Positions 461 through 17,767 are shown, counted from the stretch's first letter. The stretch: DNA of 30,887 nt from a bacterium (GCA_030588935.1 JAUUWR010000001.1:1-30887), one strand, 5' to 3'. A program made the numbers and translations. The notes: a model not told the origin generated them from the letters alone.

Positions 461-579
461 ATTAGTATAATATTTGTATTATTAGTTATTATATTGTTAA
501 ATTATGAAAAATGTTTTTTAAAGATTTATGTGGTTGAAGTATAGAAAAGGTTTTAAAGGCATATTTTCTAGACTAAAAA

Positions 580-3029: not shown

Positions 3030-3221
3030 TTTTTATTATGTTTTGAATTTCATGAAAAATTTACTTAATATTATTAACTGGAATCTTAATGGATAGTTAA
3101 GTTATTCAGAGGAGATGCTTAAGCTCTTTCTTGTTTACTTAATCTTCTTATTCGTCCCATAAATATTTTATATATTATTAGTTTTTTATATAAAATATAT
3201 GAGCGAACAAAGTGAGCGAGC
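3030..3221 (-). promoter_or_regulatory. Long upstream element copy 2 (mcm) with tandem-GA hairpin
   Basis: Plus-strand block TTTACTTAATATTATTAACTGGAATCTTAATG 3060-3091; GCTTAAGC 3117-3124; GAGCGAACAAAGTGAGCGAGC 3201-3221. Confidence 0.75.
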
Positions 3222-3387
3222 TATAAGATAATTATTTTCCTCCTTTTGTGCATAAGAGAGAAGAGTTTGATTTATAAATAATTATTTGTTGTGTAGGATA
3301 TAATTAGAAATATGTTATCTAAACAAATGAAGTGATGGGGGGTTATTTTATCTAAATATTTAAATATATTAATAATCTATAATAAAT

Positions 3388-3648
3388 ATGAGAAGTTATA
3401 AGGTTGGTTTGAAGGATTTGAAGTTTTTAGTAGAGGGTTTTGTAGATGGAATGTATTTTACGAGAACGGGGGCTGTTAGATGGTGTAAGGAAAACAAGGA
3501 AATAATAACTCCTGAATTTATGAAGAGAGTTCGTGCTAGTCCTGATGGATTTTTTTATTATGAAAGTCATCTAAGAGAGGATTTAGATGAATTTGAGAAA
3601 ATGTTAAATGAACTTTCTGAAACAGAAGAAATTCTTTCTACTCTTTAA
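3388..3648 (+). CDS. hypothetical protein (86 aa ORFan)
   Basis: ORF with TTTAAATA at 3359-3366 (-29); stop abuts the tbp stop. Confidence 0.65.
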   Translation: MRSYKVGLKDLKFLVEGFVDGMYFTRTGAVRWCKENKEIITPEFMKRVRASPDGFFYYESHLREDLDEFEKMLNELSETEEILSTL

Positions 3649-4209
3649 TTATTTATTCCGATTAGCCTCTCTTATTCTTTTGATTAATTGTGTCATTGAG
3701 TCTTCTAATTGCTGGTTGTTTTTTGTTCCTGTGCAGACTAATTTTCCATTACTGAATAATAAGAAAGTTGCGTTGGGTTCAACAAGCTTATATACTAAGC
3801 CTGGGAATTGTTCTGGTTCATATTCTGTGTTTTCTAATTCTAAAGCCAGGAAATTTAGATTTAATGGAATGTTAATACTTCCAGAAGCAACAATGTTTTG
3901 GACAGTTATTTTTGGTTTTCCAGTTATTTTGATATTTATTTTCCTTAGTGTTTTTATAACCTGTTCAATAACTTGTTTAACTTGCAGAATTGATTTTGTT
4001 CCTGTGCAAACTAAATTTCCTGATGCAAATACAAGAACTGCGGATTTTGGTTTTTTGATTCTTAATATGAGCCCTGGAAATGTTTCAGGATTATATGTCG
4101 TGGTTTGAATTGTTTTTGCTAATTTTGTTAAGGGAACATCTTTTCCTAACGAAGTTGTTGCAACTATGTTTTGAATTTTTAAAGAAGTTTTTGATTTTGT
4201 TTTAGGCAT
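3649..4209 (-). CDS. tbp: TATA-box-binding protein
   Basis: Two TBP repeats: IQNIVATT...YNPETFPGLILR...VLVFASGNLVCTG and VQNIVASG...YEPEQFPGLVYK...FLLFSNGKLVCTG. Confidence 0.98.
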   Translation of the reverse strand: MPKTKSKTSLKIQNIVATTSLGKDVPLTKLAKTIQTTTYNPETFPGLILRIKKPKSAVLVFASGNLVCTGTKSILQVKQVIEQVIKTLRKINIKITGKPKITVQNIVASGSINIPLNLNFLALELENTEYEPEQFPGLVYKLVEPNATFLLFSNGKLVCTGTKNNQQLEDSMTQLIKRIREANRNK

Positions 4210-4383
4210 TTTGTTTATTTTATTTTTTATTGGAATCTAATATTATTTTATTCTGGAATCTCTTATAAATTATTAATCTATTCAGATGACTTGCTTAAGC
4301 TTTTCTTCCGAGTAAATTATATTTTATTTATTATTAGTTTATAATATCGTAAAACAGGTGAGCGAACAAAGTAAGCGAGCCTG
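4210..4383 (-). promoter_or_regulatory. Long upstream element copy 3 (tbp) with tandem-GA hairpin
   Basis: TGGAATCT at 4231 and 4254; GCTTAAGC 4293-4300; GAGCGAACAAAGTAAGCGAGC 4360-4380. Confidence 0.75.
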
Positions 4384-4548
4384 ATATATTTGATATTTTT
4401 ATTGAGTTATTACTTTTGAATAATTAGTAAAGTTTATAAAGGGAGAGAGAGGTTTGGGTTTTTAAAGTTTTGGGTGGTGTTGTGAGAAAAATCAAAATAT
4501 ATCTTATAGATTGATAATATTTTTAAAGATAAATTTTATTTTTATAAT

Positions 4549-4845
4549 ATGAAATCTAAATCTAAAGTTAAACATGAGTTATCAAAGAATATAGTTAATT
4601 ATTTGCATGATACTTTTGGAGAGAATTATAGACAGATTGGAGAAAAGATAGACTTATCAGAGAGTTTTATGTCCCTGGTTAGACATGGAGAAAGAAATTT
4701 GACTCTTGATCATTTATTAAGGATTGAAAGTGTTTATGAAACTCCTCTCCCAACTATTTTAATACAAGCTATTAAAGATAAAAATATTCCAGAAGAATTA
4801 AGAGAGGGATATGAACTTCTTCGTGAGATAGTGATGGAAATTTAA
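4549..4845 (+). CDS. XRE-family helix-turn-helix protein
   Basis: NYRQIGEKIDLSESFMSLVRHGERNLTLDHLLRI matches the XRE/Cro HTH pattern; TTTTAAAG at 4521-4528; overlaps the lig stop by 4 nt. Confidence 0.75.
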   Translation: MKSKSKVKHELSKNIVNYLHDTFGENYRQIGEKIDLSESFMSLVRHGERNLTLDHLLRIESVYETPLPTILIQAIKDKNIPEELREGYELLREIVMEI

Positions 4846-6548
4846 TACCTCACCTTCAACTCATGCCTTTCATAATCATTAGTGATTTCTTTTAAAGTTG
4901 CAACATCTTCTGCTCTTCTGTCAGGCCTAAGCTGGATTATTCTTGGAAATCTTAATGCAAATCCGGACTTATAGGTTGGTGAGCGCTGGATGTTTTGATA
5001 TCTTATTGTCACTACAATTTTGGGTTTGATGTCTACTTTTCTTCCATGCTCTTTTGTGATTAAGGGGTTAAGTTTTTTTGTTAGTTCTGTAAATGAAAGT
5101 CCGAGTTCTTTTTTTTCTTTTAATCCTGATGATTTTCCTATTTCAAGGAATTTGTTTGTTTCGTCATCTTTGCATGATAGGGTGAAAGACGCTAAAGCTC
5201 CAGCTCTTTTTCCTTTTCCATATTCTCCTCCTGTGATAACTAAATCAAGCTCGTTTTCAGCTGGCTTGAGTTTTAGCATGTGCCCGACTCTTGCTCCTGG
5301 CTGATATGCTGATTTTAAGTTTTTAATCATAACTCCTTCTTGATTGTCTTTTAATGCCTGGTTGTAGAATTCTTTTACTTTTTTTTCATCACTTGTTATT
5401 AATTGATGCGCTGTTTTAAGGTGGAATCTCTTGTTTTTGATTATTTTTCTTAAGAGTTTTGTTCTTTTTTCAAAGGGCTGGTCAACTAATGGTTTTCCAT
5501 TATAATACAATAAATCAAATGCATTGATTTCTATTGGGAGTTTTTTGACTAATTCTGGAATATTATGTTTTCTTTTGATTCTCTGGGAAACTGCTTGAAA
5601 AGGAGTGTATTTTTTTGTTTTTCTGTCAAAACCAACTGCTTCTGAGTCAATTATAAATGATTTGGCTTTTATGTGCTGTTTGACATACTGGATAACTTCT
5701 GGGAATTGGGTGGAAACATTGTCTAATCTTCTTGTGAATATTTTTATATTTCCCTGCTCATCTTTGTTTATCATCATTCTAAAGCCATCATATTTATATT
5801 CGAAACAAGCAGGCTTGCCAACTCTTTTAAATCCATCTTCAATATCTTCTGCTTTTAATGCCAGCATTGCTTTTAATGGATGCCCAGGAGTTAAGGTGAT
5901 TGATTTTAATGCTCTTGCTCCTTTGCATGCTTTTTCAAATACTAATGCAAAATCAGTTGCTTTATCATATGCATTTTGGATGAGGCTATGATTTTCTTTT
6001 GTTTTGTCAAGACAAGCCCATACAATAGCATCTCTTATTGTTCCAGAAGCTACTCCTATTCTTAATTTGTTTAATAAAGTTCTGATAATGTATTTTGCTT
6101 CTATTTCTGAGGCAGATGTTAAGAGTTCTGAGATAAGGGAGAGTTTTTTGTCTACTGTTCCTTTGCCTTCTAGTTCTGGAAGTTTTTGCAGGTTTGCGAG
6201 AACTTTTTCAGTTGTTAATTTATGAGAGAATAATGTGTTTTGTTTTTTCTTTAAAATTATTTGTTCTGCTACTTTTCCTAAATCTCCTATTTTTTTGTAT
6301 TTTTGGATAATATCTTTTTTGTCAATTCCAGAGGATTTTGACAGTGCTTTAATGCATAATTGCTCTGAAATTCCAAATTCTCTTTCATCATAATCTGGAA
6401 ATACTTTTCCTTGGATGAGGTAAATTATTTGCTTGTCTTTTTCTTTTTTTAATGTTTTTAGGAAGTCTGCTAAGATTTCTGTTTTTTTTAATCTAGATGG
6501 GTTTTGTTCTAGGTCTTCGTATATTGTGCATAATTGTGAGTATTGCAT
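4842..6548 (-). CDS. lig: ATP-dependent DNA ligase
   Basis: Motif I EYKYDGFR, IIDSEAV, NAFDLLY, EGVMIK, WxK-like MLKLK, ALRFPRI; N-terminal DNA-binding domain. Confidence 0.98.
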   Translation of the reverse strand: MQYSQLCTIYEDLEQNPSRLKKTEILADFLKTLKKEKDKQIIYLIQGKVFPDYDEREFGISEQLCIKALSKSSGIDKKDIIQKYKKIGDLGKVAEQIILKKKQNTLFSHKLTTEKVLANLQKLPELEGKGTVDKKLSLISELLTSASEIEAKYIIRTLLNKLRIGVASGTIRDAIVWACLDKTKENHSLIQNAYDKATDFALVFEKACKGARALKSITLTPGHPLKAMLALKAEDIEDGFKRVGKPACFEYKYDGFRMMINKDEQGNIKIFTRRLDNVSTQFPEVIQYVKQHIKAKSFIIDSEAVGFDRKTKKYTPFQAVSQRIKRKHNIPELVKKLPIEINAFDLLYYNGKPLVDQPFEKRTKLLRKIIKNKRFHLKTAHQLITSDEKKVKEFYNQALKDNQEGVMIKNLKSAYQPGARVGHMLKLKPAENELDLVITGGEYGKGKRAGALASFTLSCKDDETNKFLEIGKSSGLKEKKELGLSFTELTKKLNPLITKEHGRKVDIKPKIVVTIRYQNIQRSPTYKSGFALRFPRIIQLRPDRRAEDVATLKEITNDYERHELKVRY

Positions 6549-6725
6549 TTTTGTTATATTATTTTTCTGGAATCTTTACTTAATATTATTAACTGGAATC
6601 TTAGATTAGATAATGAGATGAGGTTTATTTAGCGCTTATAGGTTCATCTTCAACCTTAATCGTCTTTTCTTTAAACTTACTCAAACTCATCTTTCGAACG
6701 TTTATTCTTGTAAGATTAGTGATAT
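6549..6725 (-). promoter_or_regulatory. Long upstream element copy 4 (lig)
   Basis: TGGAATCTT at 6568 and 6594; GAGATGAG 6615-6622; CTCATCTTTCGAAC 6686-6699; CTTGTAAGATTAG upstream. Confidence 0.75.
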
Positions 6726-6788
6726 TTATTAGTTGGTTCCTTCTTTTATTTAAGAAATCTTTTAGGTTTATTAAGGTTTTTAATTGGA

Positions 6789-7295
6789 TTAGTGATCTTT
6801 TAGTTCTGGGAGATCTGACAAAATTTTTTCTAAATTTTCTTCTAGTTGGGTATTAGAAAGGGATTCTTTTATTCCAATTGTTTTGAATATAAGGGGAGAT
6901 ATAAAGTATGTAATATTAAAATAAGGATTTATTTCAATTCTATTTTTTTTTAATTCAAAAGTTCCATATCCTGTATTCATTATTAAATTATTTTGATTTA
7001 TTAAATCATATGAGATAGAATCAGGTTCATAAAAAGAATCCTTTGGTTTATATTCTTTTAATAATCTATATAGCCCTTCAAATTCAGGTAATACATCTAA
7101 TTTATTCATATTAGTTGGCCAGGACATTCTTATAGTTGGCGATTCGTTATTTTTTTGATAATGAGAATTTACTTGTAGGAAACGAGTAGACTCTATATAA
7201 AAGCTATTCTTTCTAACTACTTCTTTTTTTTCTCCTTTACCAAATTCATTTTCTTTTGTTTTTACTATGATTTGTGTATTTGTTGCAGTTTTCAT
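6789..7295 (-). CDS. hypothetical protein (168 aa ORFan)
   Basis: Long ORF in an AT-rich stretch; no family recognised. Confidence 0.65.
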   Translation of the reverse strand: MKTATNTQIIVKTKENEFGKGEKKEVVRKNSFYIESTRFLQVNSHYQKNNESPTIRMSWPTNMNKLDVLPEFEGLYRLLKEYKPKDSFYEPDSISYDLINQNNLIMNTGYGTFELKKNRIEINPYFNITYFISPLIFKTIGIKESLSNTQLEENLEKILSDLPELKDH

Positions 7296-7340
7296 TTTTT
7301 TAGTATATTTTAATTCTTTTTAAGAATTATTGTGGTAGAG

Positions 7341-7913
7341 TTATTTCCCTCTTCTTTTTCCAGCTCTTACAGAAGGCCTATTTTTATTCATTGGAGATTT
7401 GCTTCTCAATCCTCTGCTCTTTTTTCCTGCAGATGTTAATCCTCTGAAAACTCTGTTTTTGTTTGAAGGTTTGGTTATCCATTTTGTTTTTTTATTATTT
7501 TTAATTTCTGGTCTGCTTGGGTCAATGAGAATAACTTCAAAAAAATAATATTTTCCATCTTTTCCAATATTATAAGAGTTCAAAATTTCAAGATTTTGGA
7601 ATTTTCTTTGGCATCTTTGTTCTGCGACCCATTGATAGCTCATTTTTACTATTTTTTTGTTTGTCTGTCTTTTTGTTCTTCTGCCTTTATTGGGTTTTTT
7701 TCTTTTTCTCCCTCCTCTCGAGATTCTGACTCTTGCCATAACAAAACCTTTTTTAGCTTTATAGCCAAGAGAGTGGGCCCTGTCAAGACGCAGAGGTTTT
7801 TCTACTTTAACAATTGCATTTGATTTTCTCCACTCAATCATTCTTTGCCTGAGTATTTTTTTATCTGGCTTTTTCCATGCTTGTCTTAAATGGTAATGTA
7901 GTCCTTTTGTCAT
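7341..7913 (-). CDS. rpl15e: 50S ribosomal protein L15e
   Basis: RLDRAHSLGYKAKKGFVMARVRISRGGR, QWVAEQR, LNSY, YYFFEVILIDP, RVFRGLTSAGKKSRGL. Confidence 0.97.
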   Translation of the reverse strand: MTKGLHYHLRQAWKKPDKKILRQRMIEWRKSNAIVKVEKPLRLDRAHSLGYKAKKGFVMARVRISRGGRKRKKPNKGRRTKRQTNKKIVKMSYQWVAEQRCQRKFQNLEILNSYNIGKDGKYYFFEVILIDPSRPEIKNNKKTKWITKPSNKNRVFRGLTSAGKKSRGLRSKSPMNKNRPSVRAGKRRGK

Positions 7914-7937
7914 GTTTTGATTAGAAAGAGTTTGTTT

Positions 7938-8825
7938 TTAAATGTTTCTTGGTATTTTTCCAAGCCTATTTATTAATGATTTTCTAGCAGTTCTTTCTTG
8001 TTGAGTATCAATCTCCCAATAAAAAACTTCTTCTGAGTTTATACCAATATCTATATAGCCTGTCCCTAGTATTTTTGGGATCTTCCTTGGAATATTTTTT
8101 ATTATAATAGGAAAATCAAGTTTTCTCTTAAATAAAGGAGCAGGATATAATGTTAAACAATGTTGATCTTTTCTGAATTCATAATATGGCACTATATTAA
8201 AAGGGTTTTTGTTTTCAAATTTTTTTGGTCTTTTTTGGGGTCTTCTTTCATGACTCCAACCCCCTTCTATTAGATTTTTGTAGAATTTTAATGGATTGAT
8301 GGGATCAATCATAATATGAGGGACATTTTTATCTTTTGGAATAAATACACTACTTTGATACCAGTCAGAAATTCTTCCTAATAAAAAAGAATTCCAAAAT
8401 AAAAAATCTTTTGTTTCTTCTATAACAACTCCTCTTATATGAGGTTGATGAAATTCAGAAAAAGGGAATTTAAATTCTTTACAACCTTTTAAACTATGCC
8501 ACCCATCTCCACCCCCATCTAGATGGGACATTGGTTTAACTGTAATAAAACAAGGAATATCTAAACCAAATAGATTAATATTTCTAAGAAGAATTGGGAC
8601 TTCATCCTTAGTCCATACTTGATATTCTTTTTCTCCCTCATATGTTATTTCTCCAGTTTCCCAGTTTCTTATTTGAATTTCATAAGAAATTGTTTTTAAA
8701 TTTTGATTAAAATCTTCTTCGTTATAGACTTTTCTTCCTTCAAAACCTAATTGCCACCATAAAACTTGTTTTTTATTAATAATTCTTTTTTCATTCAGTT
8801 TTTGTAAAAGTTTTTTATTAACCAT
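7938..8825 (-). CDS. hypothetical protein (295 aa, aromatic-rich ORFan)
   Basis: Long ORF immediately downstream of tRNA-Ile; no family recognised. Confidence 0.7.
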   Translation of the reverse strand: MVNKKLLQKLNEKRIINKKQVLWWQLGFEGRKVYNEEDFNQNLKTISYEIQIRNWETGEITYEGEKEYQVWTKDEVPILLRNINLFGLDIPCFITVKPMSHLDGGGDGWHSLKGCKEFKFPFSEFHQPHIRGVVIEETKDFLFWNSFLLGRISDWYQSSVFIPKDKNVPHIMIDPINPLKFYKNLIEGGWSHERRPQKRPKKFENKNPFNIVPYYEFRKDQHCLTLYPAPLFKRKLDFPIIIKNIPRKIPKILGTGYIDIGINSEEVFYWEIDTQQERTARKSLINRLGKIPRNI

Positions 8826-8851
8826 TTTATAACCCCTTTCCCCAGAAAAAA

Positions 8852-8926
8852 TGGTCCTGCTCGGATTTGAACCGAGGACCCCTACCTTATCAGAGTAGTG
8901 CTCTAACCAGGCTGAGCTACAGGACC
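8852..8926 (-). tRNA. tRNA-Ile(GAT), no intron, CCA not encoded
   Basis: Reverse complement GGTCCTG TAGCTCAGCCTGGTTAGAGC A CTACT-CTGATAA-GGTAG GGGTC CTCGG-TTCAAAT-CCGAG CAGGACC A forms a cloverleaf with anticodon GAT, followed by a T-tract. Confidence 0.97.
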
Positions 8927-9016
8927 ATAGAATTGATTATATATTTTGATTTATAAGTGTTTTTGTTTTGATTTATTTTTAGTAACATTTAAATATCTCT
9001 TATGCTTATTTTCTTT

Positions 9017-9231
9017 ATGGAACCTGAAGATATTAAAGGAGGATATGAGCCGAAGCTAGGGTTTATAAATCTAAAGGACCCCCTAAATTTAGAGACCCAA
9101 GTACATTACCACCTGAAGCATTAACTGACCCTGATTATGCTATAAAGCAATTACAAAAATATGCTGAAGAGCTTAATCCTGGAATCAAATTTGATGCTGC
9201 ACTCTGCAGCAGATGTCATCATTGCAGATAA
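9017..9231 (+). pseudogene. Frameshifted small protein ending in CSRCHHCR (pseudogene, assembly error or recoding)
   Basis: ATG at 9017 with TTTAAATA at -29 gives 35 aa (stop 9122-9124). The -1 frame is open 9049-9231 without an ATG: AEARVYKSKGPPKFRDPSTLPPEALTDPDYAIKQLQKYAEELNPGIKFDAALCSRCHHCR*. Confidence 0.6.
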
Positions 9232-9234
9232 TTC

Positions 9235-9879
9235 TTACTTCACTTGCAATTCAAGAATTAAATTTCCTTTATCTAATTCATAATTTATAATCGGCAGATT
9301 TATGTTTAGGGTTTTAGAATAGACTTTGTCTTTTGAAAGAGCTTTTATTTCAATTGAGTTTTCTAATTGGTTGATTAGAACATCATTAATGTCTTGGACG
9401 CCCGGAACTGCAAGTTCATAGACTAATCTTCCTGATAATCTTTTCATTGTTGTTTTTGGTTCTTTTCTTGGAAGTTTTGCAAACATGTCTGCTTTTTCTT
9501 TAGGCAAGTCTTTTCTTATTTTTTGAATTTGCTGTATTTGTTTTTGAGGAGAAATTTTTTGAGGGAGAATTCTTTTACCATTTACAAAAAATTGAATGTC
9601 CATGTTTGGATGATTTGGATTTTGTTTTTGCTGGTTTCCTTCTTGTATGTTTTTCATCATTTTTTCTGTCATTTTCATTGCTGTTTTGAATAATTTATTT
9701 ATTGGAATATTGTTCATCATTGATCCAAAACTGTCATCAAGATCATCTCTGCCTAGAAATCCATAATCTTTATTATTATATTTATCTTTAGAATTTAAAT
9801 TATGTCCGCAAAAAGGACAGAATTTATGGCTTTTTTCTATTTTTTCTTTGCATTGAGGACATTTTTTTTTGAATAACAT
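9235..9879 (-). CDS. N-terminal zinc-ribbon protein with C-terminal Hsp20/alpha-crystallin-like domain
   Basis: CPQC...CPFCG at the N-terminus; C-terminal VYELAVPGV...IEIKA...YSKTLNI...GNLILEL resembles the Hsp20 beta-sandwich. Confidence 0.7.
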   Translation of the reverse strand: MLFKKKCPQCKEKIEKSHKFCPFCGHNLNSKDKYNNKDYGFLGRDDLDDSFGSMMNNIPINKLFKTAMKMTEKMMKNIQEGNQQKQNPNHPNMDIQFFVNGKRILPQKISPQKQIQQIQKIRKDLPKEKADMFAKLPRKEPKTTMKRLSGRLVYELAVPGVQDINDVLINQLENSIEIKALSKDKVYSKTLNINLPIINYELDKGNLILELQVK

Positions 9880-10021
9880 TTTGATTATATTAATTTATTA
9901 ATGAATTTGGTTTAAATAGTTTTTGGGGGAAGTTTTTATGGTTTTAATGAGAAACCGAAATCTTTTTAAAATAGGAGTTTTAATATATATGATTTTTTAT
10001 ATATGATAGAGAAGAAAGAGA

Positions 10022-10681: not shown

Positions 10682-10682
10682 G

Positions 10683-10733
10683 TTTAAAAACCCAAAATTC
10701 ATAATAAAACTGCTTTAAGGGGAAAAGAGTTCT
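10683..10733 (+). promoter_or_regulatory. ORFan-associated promoter/leader element copy A
   Basis: TTTAAAAACCCAAAATTCATAATAAAACTGCTTTAAGGGGAAAAGAGTTCT, 11 nt before ATG 10745. Confidence 0.65.
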
Positions 10734-10744
10734 GATAAGATAAG

Positions 10745-11065
10745 ATGGTTAATGAAAATACTATGAGTGATCAAGAAATTAGCAAATATTTTGATAAGCA
10801 ATATAAGTATGTGGATGATAATATAAAACAACTTATAAAGATTTATAGTGATAAATTTGTGATAGTTTATGATAGAAGAGTTGTAGATTCTGATTCTAAT
10901 GAGATTGAATTAGCAAAAAGGCATCATCTAAGGGGTCAATTTGACTTTACTCTGCCTGCTTTAATAACTAAGATTTCAAAGACACTTGAAGAACATTTAG
11001 AGGAAATAAATAGAAGAAAAGAACCTGTTTATTTAGAATCTCCAGAAGAAGAGTGTTTCCGATGA
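10745..11065 (+). CDS. small protein, DUF5678-like
   Basis: YSDKFVIVYDRRVVDSDSNEIELAKR resembles the DUF5678 pattern (recognised from memory only); overlaps the MFS 3' end by 37 nt. Confidence 0.55.
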   Translation: MVNENTMSDQEISKYFDKQYKYVDDNIKQLIKIYSDKFVIVYDRRVVDSDSNEIELAKRHHLRGQFDFTLPALITKISKTLEEHLEEINRRKEPVYLESPEEECFR

Positions 11066-12432
11066 TAATGTGTTTTTCTTATGATTAATTCATGATGGCC
11101 TTCGAAACTTGGGAGTTTGATTCTCCTTGGGATTAATTCTTTTAGTGCTTTTTTAGAATCAAACTCTTTTGTTTTTCTTATTTCTTTGATAAAAGGAGTC
11201 ATAATTAAGCCTACAAACATTCTTGCAATAGCTGAGATTAAGAAAATAAATAAAAGTTTGTTCATAAAACTGATTGTTAGTGTTTTTACTAAAATAGCTC
11301 CAACTCCTGCACCTAAAAAAATTCCGATGCCGTTTAATACATTGTGATATGAAACTGCCAGGCCTCTTTTTTCAGAGCTGACAGAGTCAAAAATAAAATT
11401 TGATGTAGCTAAATTAAATCCTGCAAATGCTATTCCACCTATTAAAGCAGGACCAAGAATCAGGAAGATTGGACGAGGGGAAATTAACCATAGAACAGGA
11501 TGAAGAGGTATGAGGATAGAAGTTATTTTTATAATCCTGTAATTTCCATATTTATCAGCAAATTTGCCCCATAATCTCATTGTTAGCAGGCTGAATATTA
11601 ATTGAGAAAGAACAACTGTCATAAAAATAACATAACTGAAATTAAGATTTCTTAGCATATAAACTGCGAAAAATGGACTTGCAATAGACATTGCAAAATA
11701 CATCAATGCTGTAAAAAATGTGAATCTTCCGAAATTATTTGATTTAGCTTTTTTTATGAATTGCCAGAAAGAAAAATAATATCCTTTTTTGAGTTTTAAT
11801 TTTGGTTCATAAGATTTTTTAAAATAATAACTACAAGTCAATCTCGCTATCATCGCGATAAAAAATAATATCATAAATCCAAACATGGTGTAATTATTTT
11901 TCTTAAAAAAATCTAATAAAAAAGCAGCTAAGATTGTGAATATTAATGTAACTATGCCAATTGTGAAATTTCTTTTTGAAAACCATTTTCCTCTGTAATC
12001 TTTATCAACCACATCCCCCATCCATGAGAACCATGCAGGATAGGAAATCCCATTAAGTATTATAAATAAAGCAAAAAAGATTAGGAGTAATAATGGCAAA
12101 AAAGATATTAAAATTCCTTTATAAAATAAAAGGGCTATGATGATTAAAGGAATCCATGTTAATGCTTCGAAAAGAGTTGCAATTGTTACTATTTTTTTTC
12201 TTGGATATTTTTCAATTAATCTTGAACTTTGCCATTGACTTATCGGCCCTATTAAACCTGCAACAGAACTAATTAAAGCGATTAAGGAATTACTTGCATT
12301 GATTGCAATTGCAAAAGGAGTAATATAAGAATTTCTTAGTACAGTTCTGATTGTTGCAAAACTGCCTTCTTTGATACTTAAGTGCCTTGTTTTTCTCTGC
12401 AAAGCTCTTCTTCTCCTTTTTTTTAAATCCAT
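11029..12432 (-). CDS. Major facilitator superfamily transporter
   Basis: About 12 hydrophobic segments; WGKFADKYGNYR motif-A-like loop; WFSWMGDVV..RGKWFSKRN. Confidence 0.9.
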   Translation of the reverse strand: MDLKKRRRRALQRKTRHLSIKEGSFATIRTVLRNSYITPFAIAINASNSLIALISSVAGLIGPISQWQSSRLIEKYPRKKIVTIATLFEALTWIPLIIIALLFYKGILISFLPLLLLIFFALFIILNGISYPAWFSWMGDVVDKDYRGKWFSKRNFTIGIVTLIFTILAAFLLDFFKKNNYTMFGFMILFFIAMIARLTCSYYFKKSYEPKLKLKKGYYFSFWQFIKKAKSNNFGRFTFFTALMYFAMSIASPFFAVYMLRNLNFSYVIFMTVVLSQLIFSLLTMRLWGKFADKYGNYRIIKITSILIPLHPVLWLISPRPIFLILGPALIGGIAFAGFNLATSNFIFDSVSSEKRGLAVSYHNVLNGIGIFLGAGVGAILVKTLTISFMNKLLFIFLISAIARMFVGLIMTPFIKEIRKTKEFDSKKALKELIPRRIKLPSFEGHHELIIRKTHYHRKHSSSGDSK

Positions 12433-12482
12433 CTTTTTATAATTATTATATTTGGATTAATAAAAGTTACTGAAGAGTATTA

Positions 12483-12553
12483 TGCGCCTTCCGAGAATCG
12501 AACTCGGGTCTAGACCTTGGGAAGGTCTTATTCTGCCACTATACCAAAGGCGC
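12483..12553 (-). tRNA. tRNA-Gly(CCC), no intron, CCA not encoded
   Basis: Reverse complement GCGCCTT TGGTATAGTGGCAGAATA AGACC-TTCCCAA-GGTCT AGAC CCGAG-TTCGATT-CTCGG AAGGCGC A; anticodon CCC. Confidence 0.96.
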
Positions 12554-12605
12554 ATATGATTTATAGTATAATAATTATTTTAAAGGTTATTGTTGTGGGG
12601 GTTTG

Positions 12606-12956
12606 ATGGTTGAGAGGCAATTGTGGTGGAATTTTGTAGGAATTCCTGCTGAGGAAAAGATAAAATGGTTTTTTGTGATTGTGAATGATAAAAGAGAGAT
12701 TAGAAAAATATCGAACAGAATTTTTGGAAGGCTCGCAATGATTGAGGAATTGGTTGAAAGAGAAGGAAAAGCAGATGGTATGAATTATAAACTTCTGGTT
12801 TTTAATTCTGAAAAAAAATTAGAAAAGGATGATATTTCATCTATTTATAGGGGTTATGTGAAAAGAGAAGAAAGATTATACACTAGAAAAAGGTTGGGAA
12901 TAGATGGATTAGAAAATTATGTACAAAGAAAGTTAAAAAGAAATAATAAGCCTTAA
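12606..12956 (+). CDS. hypothetical protein (ORFan)
   Basis: ORF track starts at TTG 12603; ATG 12606 preferred because TTTTAAAG lies at 12578-12585 (-28). Confidence 0.6.
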   Translation: MVERQLWWNFVGIPAEEKIKWFFVIVNDKREIRKISNRIFGRLAMIEELVEREGKADGMNYKLLVFNSEKKLEKDDISSIYRGYVKREERLYTRKRLGIDGLENYVQRKLKRNNKP

Positions 12957-12980
12957 ATATGTTCTTTTTCTTGAATTCTT

Positions 12981-14357
12981 ATGGCAAACAAGAAAAAATT
13001 TTATGTGACAACTGCGATTGATTATGTAAATGCTCCTCCACATTGCGGGCATGCATTTGAGAAAATAATAGCTGATGCTTTAGTGAGATGGCATAAGTTA
13101 AAAGGGGAAAATGTCTGGTTTTTAACTGGGACAGATGAAAATGCTCAAAAAAATGCTCAAGCTGCAAAAGCTGCAGGAATTCCTGTTCAGAAATTTGTAG
13201 ATAAAAATTCTAAGATATTTATTGAATTATGCAAGAAATTGAATATAAATTATGATGATTTTATTAAAACAACTGAAAAAAGACATGTAAAAGTTGCTCA
13301 AGAGATTTTCAAAAAAGTTTATGATAAAGGCGAGATTTACAAGGGGAAATATGAAGGATATTATTGTAAGGGATGTGAGTCTTTTATTACTGAAAGAGAA
13401 TTAGTTGATGGGAAATGTCCTGAGCATGATAAAAAACCTGAATTACTGTCTGAAGATGCTTATTTTTTTAAGTTAAGTAAGTATAAAGATAAAATAATCA
13501 AGTTTGTTGAGGGTTATATTGTTCCTTCTTCAAGGAAGAAAGAGATTTTGTCAAGATTGAAAGGTGATGAATTAAGGGACTTATGTGTTTCTCGTAGTAA
13601 TTTAGATTGGGGTATTGATAGTCCTATTGACAAAAAATTTAAGATTTATGTGTGGTTTGATGCTTTGATAAATTATGTATCTGGTGCAAATGGGAACTGG
13701 CCTGCTGATGTCCATGTTATTGGGAAAGGAATTAACTGGTTTCATTCTGTTATTTGGCCTGGAATTTTAATGTCTGCTGGTTATGAATTGCCTAAAAAAT
13801 TATTAGTTCATGGATATTTGAATTTAAAAGGAAAGAAAATAAGTAAGACTTTGGGTAATGTAATTGACCCAATTAAATTAGCAGATAAATATGGAGCAGA
13901 TGCTGTTAGATATTCTTTGTTAAGAGGTTCTGTATTTGATGATTTTGATTATTCTGAGGAAATTTTGGTTGAGAGGTATAATAATGAACTTGCAAATAAA
14001 CTTGGGAACTTAGTTAGTAGGGTTTGTAGTTTAGCTGAGAAATATGGTTTAGAGAAATGTGAGAATAAGTTATTGAAGAAATTGAAATTAAGAGAGATAG
14101 AAAAATTAATTGATAATTATGAGCTTGATAAAGCTTTGAATTTGATTTTTGAGTTTATTGATGTTTGTAATGAGTATGTTCAGAATAAAAAGCCTTGGGA
14201 GAGTAAGGATAAGAAGGTTTTGTATGAATTAAAAGAATCTATTTTGAAAATTGCTGAACTTTTAAGTCCTTTTATTCCTGAATCTGCTGAGAAAATTAAA
14301 AAACAATTTAGTGCTAAGAAGATTAAGAAGGGGGAGATATTGTTTAGGAAGATTTAA
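12981..14357 (+). CDS. metG: Methionyl-tRNA synthetase, short form lacking the C-terminal tRNA-binding OB domain
   Basis: FYVTTAIDYVNAPPHCGH (HIGH), GTDE, Zn knuckle CKGC..CPEH, YVWFDALINY, GKGINWFH, KISKT (KMSKS), DAVRY. Confidence 0.96.
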   Translation: MANKKKFYVTTAIDYVNAPPHCGHAFEKIIADALVRWHKLKGENVWFLTGTDENAQKNAQAAKAAGIPVQKFVDKNSKIFIELCKKLNINYDDFIKTTEKRHVKVAQEIFKKVYDKGEIYKGKYEGYYCKGCESFITERELVDGKCPEHDKKPELLSEDAYFFKLSKYKDKIIKFVEGYIVPSSRKKEILSRLKGDELRDLCVSRSNLDWGIDSPIDKKFKIYVWFDALINYVSGANGNWPADVHVIGKGINWFHSVIWPGILMSAGYELPKKLLVHGYLNLKGKKISKTLGNVIDPIKLADKYGADAVRYSLLRGSVFDDFDYSEEILVERYNNELANKLGNLVSRVCSLAEKYGLEKCENKLLKKLKLREIEKLIDNYELDKALNLIFEFIDVCNEYVQNKKPWESKDKKVLYELKESILKIAELLSPFIPESAEKIKKQFSAKKIKKGEILFRKI

Positions 14358-14405
14358 AAACCTTAAAATTATATAAAATTAAACCTAAAAGGGAAGAAGA
14401 GTTCT
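14353..14405 (+). promoter_or_regulatory. ORFan-associated promoter/leader element copy B
   Basis: TTTAAAAACCTTAAAATTATATAAAATTAAACCTAAAAGGGAAGAAGAGTTCT, 14 nt before ATG 14420. Confidence 0.7.
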
Positions 14406-15118
14406 TGATAATATTGAAAATGGATTATAAAAAAATTGCAAAGTATGCAGGAAAAACTGCTGCGACAATAGTTTGTCCGCCTTTGGGGTTTGCTTTGTGG
14501 CCGAAGAAAGCAGAAAAGAGATTAGGAGCCGCAGCTGTAGGACTTGTAGTTTCTGGAATGTTTAATGTTGGAATATTATCATGGCAAAAAAAACAAGTTT
14601 ATGATAATATAAGTGTGATTGGAAAAACGCCTGTTTCTGTTGTTAATTGGGGGGAAATTTTTAGTTCTCCTATAGCATTTTATTTTGATGCTCCTAATAA
14701 AACAAGATTAAAAAAAGTTAAAAAATCTTATTTTGTACAAGGGGATGATGTAGTAACTTTTAATAATGGAAAATATAATTTAAATTTCAGTTCTGAGAGG
14801 AAGTTTGGGTCTTTTGCAGGAAAATCTGTTGCACAAGCTCAAGAACAAGTAAAGATGCATGAAAAACAATTTCAAGAAAAGATAACAAAATATGAAAAAA
14901 TACTTGAAGCTTATTTAAAACAAGGAAGTTTGCTTGATGCAAGGAGAGAAAGAGAAAATTTAGATAAATTAAAACTTCTTAAACAAGAGAAATTAGGAAA
15001 ATTAGAAGCTAATTTAGAAGCAGTTACTAAAGAATATATTGAAACAAAAACAGTCTTTCAAGAAGCTGTTGATAAGATGAATTCTGAGTTAGAGTGTCTT
15101 GCGCAAGGGAAAAATTAA
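14405..15118 (+). CDS. hypothetical membrane-anchored coiled-coil protein (probable start ATG 14420)
   Basis: Two N-terminal hydrophobic stretches and a K/E-rich heptad C-terminus; preceded by the GGGAAGAAGAGTTCT element. Confidence 0.7.
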   Translation: MIILKMDYKKIAKYAGKTAATIVCPPLGFALWPKKAEKRLGAAAVGLVVSGMFNVGILSWQKKQVYDNISVIGKTPVSVVNWGEIFSSPIAFYFDAPNKTRLKKVKKSYFVQGDDVVTFNNGKYNLNFSSERKFGSFAGKSVAQAQEQVKMHEKQFQEKITKYEKILEAYLKQGSLLDARRERENLDKLKLLKQEKLGKLEANLEAVTKEYIETKTVFQEAVDKMNSELECLAQGKN

Positions 15119-15168
15119 AAAAGAGTAAATTGTTTTTAATAAGATAAATGTGCAATAATATTAATATT

Positions 15169-15308
15169 GAAAAATTTGGAAGCTTTGCTAACCAAATTTT
15201 TCTTTTAAAATCTATAACGCTAAAAATTATTAAGTTTTGAAGATGAGATGATTAAGCGATAAATAGAAACACTTAAATTATCGGATTAATATTATAGATA
15301 AAAATAAA
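15169..15308 (+). promoter_or_regulatory. Long upstream element copy 5 (tRNA-binding gene), hairpin subtype
   Basis: 11-bp inverted repeat GAAAAATTTGG 15169-15179 / CCAAATTTTTC 15192-15202; GAAGATGAG 15239-15247; ATTAAGCGATAAA; TTATAGATAAA near the ATG. Confidence 0.65.
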
Positions 15309-15647
15309 ATGACAAAAGGAATAGTATCTTTTAAAGACTGGCAAAAATTTGATTTGCGAGTTGGAGAGATTCTTGAAGTTGAAGATATTGAAGGAGCTGA
15401 TAAGCTTTTTAAGTTGAAAATTGATTTAGGGACAGAGACAAGGGTTTTGGTTGCTGGGTTAAAAGGATATTATACAAAACCTGAATTAGAAGGAAAAAGA
15501 GTTATTGTTTTTTGTAATTTAGAGCCTCGAATGATAAGGGGGATTGAGAGCAAGGGAATGGTTTTGGCTGCTGTAAATGGTGATAAAAGTGAAGTGAAGT
15601 TGTTGCAGGCAGATGGGGTTGTTGAGTTGGGTGGGAAGGTTAGTTAG
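15309..15647 (+). CDS. Stand-alone tRNA-binding OB-fold protein (Trbp111/MetRS C-terminal/CsaA-like)
   Basis: FKDWQKFDLRVGEILEVEDIEGADKLFKLKIDLG..R.LVAGLK..Y...EL.GK.VIVFCNLEPR..RGIESKGMVLAA. Confidence 0.93.
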   Translation: MTKGIVSFKDWQKFDLRVGEILEVEDIEGADKLFKLKIDLGTETRVLVAGLKGYYTKPELEGKRVIVFCNLEPRMIRGIESKGMVLAAVNGDKSEVKLLQADGVVELGGKVS

Positions 15648-15649
15648 GT

Positions 15650-16045
15650 TTAATCATCAAGTATACCGCAAGGAAGCTTAACAATTTCACAAATCTTATT
15701 ATAATTAAAATAAGAGTCTAAATAGGACATTATCTGTTGAGGCGAGCGATAAAGATAACTACCAGAGGCTTTAATGCATAAAGAAGAGGTTTTAACCCCT
15801 CTATCTTTTTTTAATCTTAAGCTTAGTCTTGCAGGGATAGAACGATATGATTCGTTCTTAGCATTAACAGAAAATTCAAATCCTCTTTTTTTATATTTAA
15901 TTACTCGAAAACTTCTTTCTGATTCAGGAGCTTCATCTAATGTTTTGATTAATTTATCAGCAAATTCTTTTACTGATCTGTTAGTATTCATCCATCCTTG
16001 AAAATATATTGTCTTAAACTCAAAATCTGGTTTTCTTTTAAACAT
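15650..16045 (-). CDS. hypothetical protein (131 aa ORFan)
   Basis: ORF convergent with the tRNA-binding gene (2 nt gap). Confidence 0.6.
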   Translation of the reverse strand: MFKRKPDFEFKTIYFQGWMNTNRSVKEFADKLIKTLDEAPESERSFRVIKYKKRGFEFSVNAKNESYRSIPARLSLRLKKDRGVKTSSLCIKASGSYLYRSPQQIMSYLDSYFNYNKICEIVKLPCGILDD

Positions 16046-16098
16046 TATAAAAATAAATAATAAATCATTTATAAGGATTTATGTAATAATTAATAGAA

Positions 16099-16866
16099 TT
16101 ATCCCTTCCCAAACAACCTCTTCCAAAATCCAAGCCTGATTGGAGGTTCTATCTCAACATCTTCTCCGAGAAGTCTTCTTGATGTGGTAAGATAAGTTTT
16201 TGCTGCTCTGGATTTTGGATGAGTGTGGATTACTGCGTTTTTCATAGCTTGTGATTTTTTTATTGCAACATCTTCTGGGATAATACCTAAAATAGGGCTT
16301 TCTAACATGTCTTTTATATTTGGAAGAGACATTTCTGTTTCTTTTCCCTGGTATCTTGTTATTATGATTCCCTTTATAGGCTTGTTCATTTCTTGTGTGA
16401 GCTTAATTGTTTTTAGAGCGTCTGTTATGGCAGCTATTTCTGGGTTAGTTATAATTATGATTTCATCAGAAACTTGTATTATGGATTTAACTTCTTTGCC
16501 TAATCCTGCTGCAGAGTCAATTAAAATATGGTCTGTTATTCTTTTTAGTTTTTTTGCAATGTCTGGGAGGGCTTTATAATTTATTTTTCCAATTTCTTTT
16601 AATGAGAGAGAGGCAGGGATGATTTTTGTTCCAGATTCATGCTCATAAATAGCTTCTTCTAATTTTGCCTGCCCATTTAAAACATGATTAAGGGTGATAG
16701 GGACTATAGGAGCTCCTAAGTGAATGCCTATGTTTGGGGTGGATAGGTTTCCATCTATGATGATAACATTTTCTCCTAAGTGGTTTAAAGAGGTTCCTAA
16801 ATTAATTGCACTTGTGGTTTTTCCAGTTCCTCCTTTTCCTGAGATTATTGCGTAGATTTTTGACAT
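16099..16866 (-). CDS. minD: MinD/ParA-family ATPase (archaeal MinD-like)
   Basis: Deviant Walker A SGKGGTGKTT, IIDGNL, ILIDSAAGLG, C-terminal amphipathic FWKRLFG. Confidence 0.92.
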   Translation of the reverse strand: MSKIYAIISGKGGTGKTTSAINLGTSLNHLGENVIIIDGNLSTPNIGIHLGAPIVPITLNHVLNGQAKLEEAIYEHESGTKIIPASLSLKEIGKINYKALPDIAKKLKRITDHILIDSAAGLGKEVKSIIQVSDEIIIITNPEIAAITDALKTIKLTQEMNKPIKGIIITRYQGKETEMSLPNIKDMLESPILGIIPEDVAIKKSQAMKNAVIHTHPKSRAAKTYLTTSRRLLGEDVEIEPPIRLGFWKRLFGKG

Positions 16867-17090
16867 TTTCTTATTTTATGTTGTTTTTTTACCTTCTATT
16901 TTATGGAAAAATTAAGAGCCTTCGGACAACTTAATTTTCCTTTTTTATCTATAAGGTTATAAATTTTTAAGTTATGTGAGTGAGTTCTTTTGTTTTCTCC
17001 TTGTCTGCTTAAGCTTCTCTTCTGAGTAAATTAATATTTTATAAGATATTGGTTTTTTATAATATAAGCGAGCGAACAAAGTGAGTGAGC
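16867..17090 (-). promoter_or_regulatory. Long upstream element copy 6 (minD) with tandem-GA hairpin and proximal stem-loop
   Basis: GCTTAAGC 17007-17014; GAGCGAACAAAGTGAGTGAGC 17070-17090; stem GGAAAAATTAAG 16905 / CTTAATTTTCC 16930-16940. Confidence 0.7.
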
Positions 17091-17117
17091 CAATTATATT
17101 TTAACTTTTTTTGACAA

Positions 17118-17573
17118 TTACTTGGATGTCAAAAAAAGCTTGGTATAATTTATAAACCTTTCGAGAATTTCAGCATATTCTTTTAATTTGTCTAAATCAA
17201 CTCTGATTTCTTCTCCTTTGTATATGATTGTTAAGCAAACTCCTTTTCTAAATTCGTTGGCCTTGGTTTTTTTGAGGATATCAATTAATTTAAACATCTC
17301 GTATAATTTGATGGCTTCTATGACTTCTTCTTGTTTTTTGAAAATTTTTTTTATAGCGTCTACTTTTATTTTTGGGGCTGTTGGGATTTTTTTAATCTTT
17401 TTTTTCTTTTTTGCTTTTCCTAATAGCCCATCAATAGAATAATCAATCATTATTTTCCATCTTTTGAGAAGATTAATCATTACATCGCAGGTTTTTGTGT
17501 ATTTCAAACTAACATAAAGCAAATGGTCTGCACTTATTTTTTCTTTAATTATTTCTTCTAAATTTTCTGACAT
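17118..17573 (-). CDS. conserved-looking helical hypothetical protein (possible HEPN-like), paralog A
   Basis: ADHLLYVSLKY motif shared with ORF 18261-18728; carries the long upstream element. Confidence 0.75.
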   Translation of the reverse strand: MSENLEEIIKEKISADHLLYVSLKYTKTCDVMINLLKRWKIMIDYSIDGLLGKAKKKKKIKKIPTAPKIKVDAIKKIFKKQEEVIEAIKLYEMFKLIDILKKTKANEFRKGVCLTIIYKGEEIRVDLDKLKEYAEILERFINYTKLFLTSK

Positions 17574-17767
17574 GTTTTATTATATTATTTTTTGGAATCT
17601 TACAATTTACTTGATATTATTAACTGGAATCTTAATGAATAATACCTTACTCAGATGAGTAGCTTAAGTTCTCTTTTACTCTCTTACGCTTCTCATATCA
17701 AGCGTTATATTTTATTTATTATGAGTTTTTTATATAAAAGAGGCGAGCGAACAAAGTGAGCGAGCCT
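17574..17767 (-). promoter_or_regulatory. Long upstream element copy 7 (ORF 17118-17573) with tandem-GA hairpin
   Basis: TGGAATCTT 17593 and 17625; block 17606-17637 is 31/32 identical to 3060-3091; GATGAG 17654; CTCAT 17692; hairpin 17741-17767. Confidence 0.8.

Follow-up and report, generated by a model that had tools for sequence, protein, structure and literature searches.

A hairpin built on G.A pairs precedes four genes

We analyzed a window of 30,887 nucleotides from a 0.96-Mb DPANN-type archaeal MAG (121 contigs; completeness 82.6%). Four of its minus-strand genes are each preceded by a copy of an intergenic repeat, hereafter the cassette, with a GC-rich hairpin at its far end (Table 1). 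The original prediction had placed four such hairpins ~150–205 nt upstream of these genes, and a search allowing up to three mismatches returned exactly four matches, all on the plus strand (3199-3221, 4358-4380, 17068-17090 and 17743-17765), with a chance expectation of 0 (none in 100 dinucleotide-preserving shuffles). The gaps to the start codons measured 171, 150, 203 and 171 nt for MCM, TBP, the MinD/ParA-type ATPase and the 151-aa ORF, respectively. The predicted extensions of the outer stem were likewise present (CAGGT..GCCTG at 4355-4383; AGGC..GCCT at 17741-17767), and copy 2 carries a T.G wobble at pair 3-23.

The junction between A/T box and hairpin is precise, and the core TTTATATAAA of the box at 3185..3197 is its own reverse complement. 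Within the cassette body at 3057..3192, the order of elements is GGAATCT..AGATGAG..GCTTAAGC..AATATTTTAT. The A-rich BRE of this genome was absent on either side of the adjacent TTTATATA box, so the term “promoter cassette” may misdescribe that box. The stop codon of the ORF at 17118-17573 lies 27 nt from hairpin 3. For the divergent ORFan at 3388, a separate canonical TATA box stands exactly 29 nt ahead of the ATG.

Table 1 Hairpins, A/T boxes, cassette bodies and associated genes in the window.
Feature	Coordinates	Strand	Description
Hairpin copy 1	3198..3222	+	Core GAGCGAACAAAGTGAGCGAGC intact; outermost three pairs degenerate (TAT...GCT)
Hairpin copy 2	4355..4383	+	G17->A (A.A replacing A.G); outer stem extended CAGGT..GCCTG
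Hairpin copy 3	17067..17091	+	C20->T (G.U/G.T wobble, purine strand); position 1 = A
Hairpin copy 4	17741..17767	+	Exact consensus 25-mer GGCGAGCGAAC-AAA-GTGAGCGAGCC plus outer A-T pair
A/T box TTTATATAAAATA	3185..3197		Abuts hairpin 1
A/T box TTTATATAAAAGA	17729..17741		Abuts hairpin 4
Cassette 1 body	3057..3192	+	mcm start codon to hairpin 1; nhmmer and alignments
Cassette 2 body	4230..4347	+	tbp start codon to hairpin 2; nhmmer and alignment
Cassette 3 body	16919..17062	+	minD-like start codon to hairpin 3; nhmmer and alignment
Cassette 4 body	17595..17736	+	ORF 17118-17573 start codon to hairpin 4; nhmmer and alignment
mcm	1023..3029	-	Served by cassette 1
tbp	3649..4209	-	Served by cassette 2
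MinD/ParA-type ATPase gene	16099..16866	-	Served by cassette 3
151-aa ORF	17118..17573	-	No Pfam match; served by cassette 4

The hairpin is an optional end module of a gene-start cassette

Genome-wide, the cassette family comprises ~180 copies, which fill the DNA upstream of gene starts. Among 120 well-scored copies, 29 carry the hairpin and 91 lack it, and the two groups do not differ in gene context. Rather than being a free-standing element, the hairpin is a module that only some cassettes have at their distal (upstream) border. Its place is after the upstream gene's stop codon and before the cassette, directly against the self-complementary A/T box. In 24 of 27 cases, the cassette end points toward the start codon of a gene that is read away from it, and in 17 of 27 the hairpin lies 2–56 nt beyond the stop codon of an upstream gene with the same direction. 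The divergent ORFan originally described beyond the hairpin is found for three of the four copies in the window but does not hold across the genome, where most copies follow such a stop codon.

Mismatch searches of the whole genome recovered 25 hairpins at up to three mismatches and 30 at up to four. All copies (28–30) are intergenic, and decayed and interrupted copies are also present. The strand preference suspected from the window proved strict, as all hairpins point the same way with respect to cassette and gene (29/29), and in every case the purine (foldable) strand is the antisense strand of the gene downstream.

The genes downstream form a functionally mixed housekeeping set, and a replication-gene regulon was rejected on this ground. 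A leader peptide starting from the ATG in “...TATTTATGG...” was likewise rejected because many cassette copies lack the ATG. To see from which strand a possible cassette RNA might come, we counted pairing deviations around the GCTTAAGC centre of the cassette; they were of the G.T type in 101 instances and of the A.C type in 104, in an ungapped registration with poor pairing, and favored neither strand. We sought a 16S rRNA for pairing with the AGATTCCA box and found none in the MAG.

Hairpin presence on a tree of 104 cassette bodies (~120 nt) required at least 22 changes, compared with a shuffle mean of 25.5. Two diverged metagenomic relatives, L169 and L194, retain the fusion of cassette and hairpin; when foreign loci were searched with the cassette model using nhmmer, weak matches alone were obtained, in these two relatives. 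The original prediction had missed both the hairpin's place as the end module of a ~180-copy repeat and the cosmopolitan distribution of its core.

Watson–Crick pairs covary around conserved G.A layers

The hairpin is composed of a Watson–Crick stem, a tandem sheared G.A layer, an RY step, a second tandem G.A layer, a further RY step and a GNA/AAA triloop. Folded as RNA, the purine strand adopts the proposed structure (-7.6 kcal/mol, z -2.3), and the complementary strand reaches just -3.5 kcal/mol (z -0.3), in agreement with the predicted folding on one strand. With DNA parameters, which may not credit sheared G.A pairs, neither strand beats its shuffles.

Mean identity among copies is 93% within the 25-mer versus 62% and 55% in the flanks, a conservation that could stem from recent spread instead of selection. 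Variation does not break the pairing at random, as changes are compensatory: pair 11-15 is C-G in 23 genome copies and T-A in 6, and pair 7-19 is T-A in one. The G.A and A.G positions are kept in 26–28 of 29 copies. The loop reads AAA in 23 of 29 copies, and those with a GAA loop are closed by T:A, not C:G.

A kink-turn or K-loop (L7Ae site) was rejected since each G.A layer forms a symmetric internal loop between Watson–Crick pairs, with no bulge. Rfam 15 at the gathering score returned tRNAs only for the window and 16 foreign loci, and at E up to 10 nothing relevant around two hairpin copies. A search of the accessible literature for the hairpin core and its substrings found no paper.

The core recurs across unrelated prokaryotes and viruses

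An identical 21-mer core occurs in more than 230 contigs from haloarchaea, Bacteroidota, Proteobacteria, CPR bacteria, DPANN archaea and viruses. When both positions of the compensatory pair were left free in the search, the combinations across other taxa were C..G (197), T..A (29), T..G (2) and C..A (1), and the loop of this cosmopolitan form is GAA in 184 of 229. Among IMG/VR contigs, the core was found in 14, a step-swapped sibling in 13 and an all-GC sibling in 87; neither the reversed sequence nor the Watson–Crick-repaired palindrome was found (0 contigs each). Because these siblings are as common or commoner in viral contigs and the reversed and repaired forms are absent, the hairpin represents a class defined by structure (GA-RY-GA-RY-GNA-RY-GA-RY-GA) rather than one homologous element. 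At the sequence level, G.A pairs, not Watson–Crick pairs, are shown to be required in this class.

In other taxa, the placement is terminator-like: the hairpin stands mostly after gene ends, most commonly between convergent genes, and in Halostagnicola one copy is located 40 nt past a stop codon. A run of T5–7 follows the purine strand in haloarchaea and in a congener, and short matches to the core are present in microviruses and small plasmids. The expansion is genome-specific, with 28 copies here versus at most two in each of 40 relatives; a phylum survey found at most one copy in each of 400 genomes. All-against-all BLAST of 5,603 ORFs around foreign copies revealed no shared neighbour protein, no family being present at more than 12 of ~230 loci.

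Interpretation of the hairpin

We tentatively favor, at somewhat less than even chances, the reading that the hairpin is a stem-loop marking, on one strand, the boundary of a terminator/promoter-like cassette that resembles the PeSL elements of T4-type phages. In its favor are the position and fixed orientation of the hairpin, its modular occurrence, conservation and covariation, the G.A requirement, the placement in other taxa and the PeSL precedent. It would limit transcription, or another single-strand process, on the gene-antisense strand at the cassette border. The near-identical hairpin patch may also let cassettes swap ends via recombination or gene conversion, and we propose that such exchange would explain the scatter of the hairpin over cassette subfamilies. 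Several observations count against a boundary role. On the gene-sense strand, T4 follows within 2–6 nt of the hairpin in about half of the copies, but the RNA hairpin there is weak (-3.5 kcal/mol) and no better than shuffles. On the purine strand, the hairpin is strong, but T-runs after it in this genome (~11 of 29 copies, hand count) are not clearly above background. Moreover, the 91 cassettes noted above do without it. Archaeal termination generally has no need for a hairpin, which speaks against a terminator. Finally, a G-to-A change at this loop position raises SSB binding in DNA mini-hairpins (review, PMC13037366), which we take as loss of the mini-hairpin, and the loop here is mostly AAA.

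It is rather unlikely that the element works as part of a purine-strand RNA, whether as a terminal stabilizing hairpin (5′ or 3′) of an antisense or divergent ncRNA or as a terminator of antisense transcription. The folding energy of this strand, its G-U wobble variants and the terminator-like T5–7 in the congener and haloarchaea would fit such an RNA, but opposite-strand wobble variants are about as frequent (9 versus 7, counted by hand in the pair table). A long transcript of the purine strand would be impeded by T-runs inside the cassette, the ORFan at 3388 is equipped with a separate TATA box, Rfam offers no match even at E up to 10, and GNA triloops are a hallmark of DNA, not RNA (PMC13037366).

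We also consider it unlikely that the hairpin is a recently spread, essentially neutral passenger without function in the host. Such a passenger would suit the genome-specific expansion, the near-identical copies amid diverged surroundings, the decayed and interrupted copies and the many cassettes lacking a hairpin, but not the absolute orientation, the precise A/T box junction, the cassette-plus-hairpin fusion kept in L169 and L194, or the retention of G.A positions while Watson–Crick pairs covary.

Quite unlikely is a selfish REP/REPIN-like single-strand DNA element moved by an HUH Y1 enzyme (RAYT or IS200-type TnpA), as the original prediction had suggested. The copies are short imperfect palindromes, intergenic, numerous, expanded in this genome and scattered among cassettes; their one-strand folding suits single-strand recognition, and one Y1_Tnp gene is present (C117:78-422). 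However, this sole Y1 HUH transposase gene is flanked by its own different, perfectly paired hairpins, and its contig holds no GA hairpin. The resident IS ends form hairpins of the CTCTGCC-TTAA-GGCAGAG and CTCGCCC-TTTA-GGGCG types, which differ from the GA hairpin, and a TnpB zinc-ribbon domain was not found in the genome. As the MAG is 82.6% complete, a cognate HUH gene could be missing. Further against mobility of this kind, we observed no REPIN-like inverted doublets, the only oppositely oriented neighbours being ~700 nt apart (C98), and no conserved flanking tetranucleotide; hundreds of unrelated genomes also carry the core, without a neighbour protein in common. Overall, the original interpretation is partly supported.

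An ssDNA replication signal, that is, a priming or SSB-exclusion site of the G4 type or an ssiA-like site with mini-hairpins, is very unlikely. The cosmopolitan form does contain C-GAA-G, the extraordinarily stable DNA mini-hairpin found at phage G4 primase sites and ssiA (PMC13037366), and short matches occur in microviruses and small plasmids. Against this, thirty sites tied to gene starts are not a replication pattern, orientation follows genes, and the loop here is mostly AAA. To our knowledge, archaeal primase needs no such signal. Highly improbable is a dsDNA operator in which a transcription factor would read the direct repeat GAGCGA-N7-GAGCGA (13 nt apart) to govern a core-gene regulon: the fixed position upstream of housekeeping genes would agree with it, but the compensatory changes suit a hairpin and not a direct repeat, the step-swapped sibling keeps the hairpin, breaks the repeat and is equally common in viral contigs, unrelated taxa and viruses share the core, the genes downstream are of mixed function, and no searched relative has more than two copies.

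A possible structural punctuation mark

Beyond the boundary role that we favor in this genome, the GA-clamped triloop mini-hairpin (GA-RY-GA-RY-GNA-RY-GA-RY-GA) may be a universal, structure-defined punctuation mark, convergent or exchanged across bacteria, archaea and viruses and read by a shared single-strand process, a broad proposal to which we assign roughly a one-in-four standing. We propose that its occurrence across taxa would be due to rapid folding that is confined to one strand. Candidate processes might include SSB exclusion, resistance to Mre11-Rad50/SbcCD-type hairpin nucleases and polymerase pausing, and this archaeon would be one lineage that wired the hairpin into gene-start cassettes.

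If our reading is right, a reduced archaeal genome devotes well over 1% of its DNA to one gene-start cassette family, some of whose members have a strand-specific stem-loop, with a bearing on transcription-unit organisation in small-genome archaea, including inside ribosomal-protein clusters. The core would be a sequence-level constant across unrelated prokaryotes and viruses, with no Rfam 15 match. Its grammar is explicit enough to be tested (G.A pairs required, RY steps covarying, the Watson–Crick version avoided) and would give a handle for genome-wide searches for one-strand-only structures and their readers.

Comparison with known systems

Like REP/REPIN sequences, the hairpin is a short imperfect palindrome, intergenic, multi-copy and lineage-specific. 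REP/REPINs have species-specific sequences, whereas the core described here is common to unrelated phyla, and, unlike them, it has no cognate RAYT, inverted doublets or conserved flanking tetranucleotide.

SantaLucia and Turner reportedly described the tandem sheared G.A motif r(GGCGAGCC)2 in a model duplex. The Y-GA-R context that favors sheared tandem G.A pairs is the same in the outer stem GGCGAGC/GCGAGCC, although r(GGCGAGCC)2 is a model duplex and not a genomic element.

The extraordinarily stable DNA mini-hairpins d(GCGAAGC)/d(GCGAAAGC) of Hirao and colleagues reportedly sit where priming and transcription start on single-stranded phage and plasmid DNA (PMC13037366). The cosmopolitan form of the core likewise ends in C-GAA-G, in which a C:G pair closes a GNA triloop with a sheared G.A. 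Unlike the mini-hairpins, the hairpin here sets its triloop on two tandem G.A layers separated by RY steps; 23 of 29 copies in this genome have an AAA loop, and nothing points to an origin function.

A close parallel is PeSL (promoter-early stem-loop) of T4-type phages (Arbiol et al. 2010, PMC2839356; Comeau et al. 2014, PMC4122927), in which a composite stem-loop and promoter form cassettes that recombine (PMC2839356). Terminator and promoter activity of PeSLs was shown experimentally, whereas for the present cassettes both activities are putative. Cassette exchange of the PeSL kind is a conjecture here, where the hairpin is scattered over a tree built on ~120 nt. The cassette stem-loop differs from that of PeSL in being optional, built on G.A pairs and foldable on the strand antisense to the genes, and PeSLs belong to phages, the cassettes to a cellular archaeon. 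Both are short composite intergenic repeats in many copies, similar enough to recombine, and both set a stem-loop behind one gene and ahead of the next gene's expression signals.

A covarying hairpin that folds on one strand

The GA hairpin, a purine-rich mini-hairpin with tandem sheared G.A pairs, forms a conserved stem-loop with covarying pairs, and only one of its two strands folds. A search of the window at ≤3 mismatches recovered exactly the four copies of the original prediction, all on the + strand, and none of 100 dinucleotide-preserving shuffles gave a match. The sequences of the hairpins agreed with the description, as did both outer-stem extensions given there. Folded as RNA, the purine-rich strand adopted exactly the proposed structure (−7.6 kcal/mol, z = −2.3), and its complement reached only −3.5 kcal/mol (z = −0.3); with DNA parameters, for which credit for sheared G.A pairs is not established, neither strand did better than shuffles. 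The minus-strand genes reading away from the window hairpins encode MCM, TBP, a MinD/ParA-type ATPase and one ORF without a Pfam match, and Pfam likewise gave no match for any of the three divergent ORFs beside these hairpins. The 5′ arm GGCGAGCGAAC (for example, window 17742–17752) probably corresponds to a segment conserved in domain I of bacterial 23S rRNA (..GCGGCGAGCGAAC..); the MAG itself contains no rRNA genes to set beside it.

The window corresponds to contig C60 in a home assembly of 959 kb (121 contigs, 30% G+C, 82.6% completeness); judging by its marker genes, the source is an archaeon with a small genome. Hairpin copies in this assembly number 25 at ≤3 mismatches, rising to 30 when 4 are allowed, and they occur on both strands of the contigs. 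Alignment of 29 copies yielded the 25-mer consensus GGCGAGCGAAC-AAA-GTGAGCGAGCC and revealed compensatory changes: pair 11–15 is C-G in 23/29 copies and T-A in 6/29, and pair 7–19 is T-A in one copy, a double change. Each of the four G.A/A.G positions is retained in 26–28 of these copies, and mean identity falls from 93% across the hairpin to 62% and 55% in the flanks, aligned without gaps. Variants with wobble pairs would place G-U on either strand about equally often and so do not reveal the relevant strand. A scan with a general grammar found 19 exact two-layer hairpins in the genome versus one in the reversed genome, and no second GA-clamped family in the home genome.

Hairpins sit at the distal end of gene-start cassettes

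Aligning first the window's four copies and then the full set of 30 revealed that, to one side of the hairpin, sequence conservation continues for 130–190 nt. This cassette, with the landmarks GGAATCT, AGATGAG, GCTTAAGC and AATATTTTAT, gave 203 matches (181 non-overlapping) in a profile search of the 0.96-Mb genome; genome-wide counts registered both a AAGATTCCA box and the general cassette. The GATGAG/CTCATC inverted repeat was not confirmed as a structure. The GGAATCT end adjoins the start codon of the gene reading away, toward which the cassette is almost always oriented, and the opposite end usually lies just beyond the stop codon of a co-directional upstream gene. The hairpin is joined in one orientation to this distal border, between one gene's end and the next gene's signals. 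Given this placement, the purine strand in every case runs antisense to the served gene, in line with the original prediction.

Among 120 cassettes scoring ≥30 bits, the hairpin is present in 29 and absent in 91, with equal gene context. The genes served by hairpin-bearing cassettes form a mixed housekeeping set (MCM, TBP, MinD; ribosomal proteins L18, L31e, S17 and S8e; OapB, topoisomerase I, an amidase, a DHH/RecJ-like protein and an M50 protease), and several of the encoded proteins had no family match. On contig C7, a cassette stands before gene after gene, including the L18 gene of a ribosomal-protein cluster.

A canonical TTTATATA-type box accompanies 13/30 hairpin copies, its first base 11–13 nt before the hairpin, which is 3–5 nt after it in gene direction; the box core TTTATATAAA is self-complementary. 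The leaderless promoter of the home genome is sharply defined: in 88 ORFs, TTTAWAWA begins exactly 29 nt before the ATG, with an A-rich BRE at −38 to −32. Since this BRE is absent on both sides of the box, the box cannot be called a promoter. At the divergent ORFan at 3388, TTTAAATA lies exactly 29 nt before the ATG (window 3359–3390), which indicates a putative promoter of its own that would make the hairpin unnecessary. Cassette-bearing genes instead have AGATTCCA roughly 20–40 nt upstream of the ATG; the sequence leading to the start codon is very rich in A, and a Shine-Dalgarno sequence is lacking.

Given this position, we consider it possible, at somewhat less than even confidence, that the hairpin acts as a strand-specific boundary at the cassette border. 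A role of the purine strand at the RNA level, the form in which that strand folds well, is a weaker explanation.

Defining REP/RAYT features were not found in the incomplete MAG

The leading idea of the original prediction was a REP-like element served by an HUH nuclease. The genome does contain a single Y1 HUH transposase gene, and a second copy of the IS200-type locus lies at the end of C24. The hairpins on either side of the Y1 gene, CTCTGCC-TTAA-GGCAGAG and CTCGCCC-TTTA-GGGCGGGG, pair perfectly and differ in sequence from the GA hairpin; they recur a few times, the former at about five genome sites. No TnpB zinc-ribbon domain was found in the genome. With different flanking hairpins, no GA hairpin on the Y1 contig C117 and no REPIN-like doublets among the hairpin copies, the features that define REP/RAYT systems are therefore absent from this MAG, itself incomplete (82.6%), and a selfish REP-like element is a weaker reading than the boundary.

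Coordinates of cassette examples and of loci discussed in the text
Feature	Location	Strand
Cassette example	window 339–469	+
Cassette example	window 3057–3192	
Cassette example	window 4230–4347	
Cassette example	window 16919–17062	
Cassette example	window 17595–17736	
Cassette example	window 22902–23026	−
IS200-type Y1 transposase (138-aa frame)	home MAG (G000) C117:1–700 (locus L001)	
Y1 HUH transposase gene (94.7 bits)	C117:78–422	
Congener (G011) hairpin copies	L377:300–400; L378:100–215	
~100-nt GA-tip hairpin	L180, L184, L197, L200, L207, L213, L217, L228	
Near-copy in plasmid pB379_5	L242:380–470	

Patchy distribution and lineage-specific expansion

The distribution of the hairpin among cassettes is patchy. 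A tree of 104 cassette bodies, weak at ~120 nt of sequence, requires at least 22 changes to account for hairpin presence (shuffled labels: mean 25.5; ≤22 in 16/300 shuffles). Decayed, shortened or interrupted hairpins also occur in the home genome. Together, and subject to the weakness of the tree, these results indicate that the hairpin behaves as a module gained, lost or exchanged. A neutral passenger, which such patchiness might also suggest, is again weaker than the boundary reading.

Neither the hairpin nor the exact cassette pattern (GGAATCT...GCTTAAGC) is repeated in any of 24 same-genus and 16 same-order genomes, one same-order genome having a single match to the cassette pattern. Across 400 genomes of the phylum, four others carry one hairpin copy each, versus 28 here. 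L169 and L194, both metagenome contigs, have a diverged cassette to which the same hairpin is attached with unchanged orientation; in one of them the loop is GAA. Thus, the multi-copy expansion is specific to the home lineage, and the cassette–hairpin fusion is kept in at least two relatives. Under a loose grammar, one congener has two copies, each ending a ~60-nt G+C-rich element; they end in GGAGCGAACGAAGTGAGTGA, followed by T6–7 on the purine strand, and resemble the 3′ terminus of a short structured transcript carrying a putative GA-hairpin terminator.

A cosmopolitan core defined by structure

The core, the 21-mer centre of the hairpin, is also met in unrelated taxa. Scanning for the exact pattern GAGCGAA-Y-RAA-R-TGAGCGAGC returned, among the matches listed, >114 stretches in reference genomes and >120 in metagenomes; we estimate roughly that chance alone would yield ~2 in the 596-Gb genome collection. 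Among the hosts are many haloarchaea as well as Bacteroidota, Alphaproteobacteria, Myxococcota, Chloroflexota, Saccharibacteria and Nano-/Woesearchaeota, spanning 27–74% G+C, with flanks that differ by lineage. Among the matches listed, free positions 8/12 covary (C..G 197, T..A 29, T..G 2, C..A 1), flanks add ≥4 pairs to the stem in ~35% of cases versus ~4% in a shifted control, convergent gene pairs are the commonest setting, and no strand bias relative to genes is apparent (85 sense-downstream versus 82 antisense-downstream). Variants within foreign loci retain [stem]-GA-NC-GNA-GN-GA-[stem], the inner steps of which compensate each other (AC/GT, GC/GC, CC/GG and AT/AT). No neighbouring protein is common to the foreign loci, Rfam has no match to hairpin or core, and searchable papers gave none to the core.

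Some copies in haloarchaea lie directly against a tRNA gene's 3′ end, with the gene on the opposite strand (among L015, L061, L063, L076 and L196); others form the tip of long inverted repeats of tRNA T-arm-like sequence (GATTTGAA...TTCAAATC), reminiscent of attachment-site remnants. A ~100-nt hairpin, near-identical between copies and tipped by the GA core, is found in several different metagenomes (31–37% G+C) and probably represents an element present in multiple copies in a single low-G+C lineage. The E. coli plasmid pB379_5 (2.5 kb, RepL) carries a near-copy, GACCGAACGTAGTGAGCGAGC, in its non-coding part, a candidate single-strand initiation site.

Exact sequence counts in IMG/VR viral contigs placed the core on 14 contigs, a sibling with the two RY steps swapped on 13 and an all-GC sibling on 87, a count that repetitive sequence may inflate. 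The core letters read backwards, and a palindrome with the same 5′ arm and Watson-Crick partners replacing G.A, occurred on none. Despite the caveat on the all-GC count, the G.A pairs are required, more than tolerated. The hairpin grammar is GA-RY-GA-RY-GNA-RY-GA-RY-GA, combining a C:G-closed GNA triloop with Y-GA-R, the context for sheared G.A pairs. Because this grammar allows so few good solutions, the same 21-mer could have been reached repeatedly, and convergence would be at least as likely as horizontal spread.

Comparison with known systems

A GNA triloop is the hallmark of DNA mini-hairpins, which sit at primase and transcription start sites in single-stranded phage and plasmid DNA (PMC13037366). 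The loop in the home genome is mostly AAA. G-to-A at that loop position reportedly raises SSB binding (PMC13037366), which we take to mean loss of the mini-hairpin. A priming signal, for which these mini-hairpins offer a parallel, is weaker than a strand-specific boundary, as is a duplex operator, which would act as double-stranded DNA. The boundary reading has its closest counterpart in the PeSL terminator–promoter cassettes of T4-type phages, which recombine with one another (PMC2839356) and in which the stem-loop occupies a position corresponding to that of the hairpin here.
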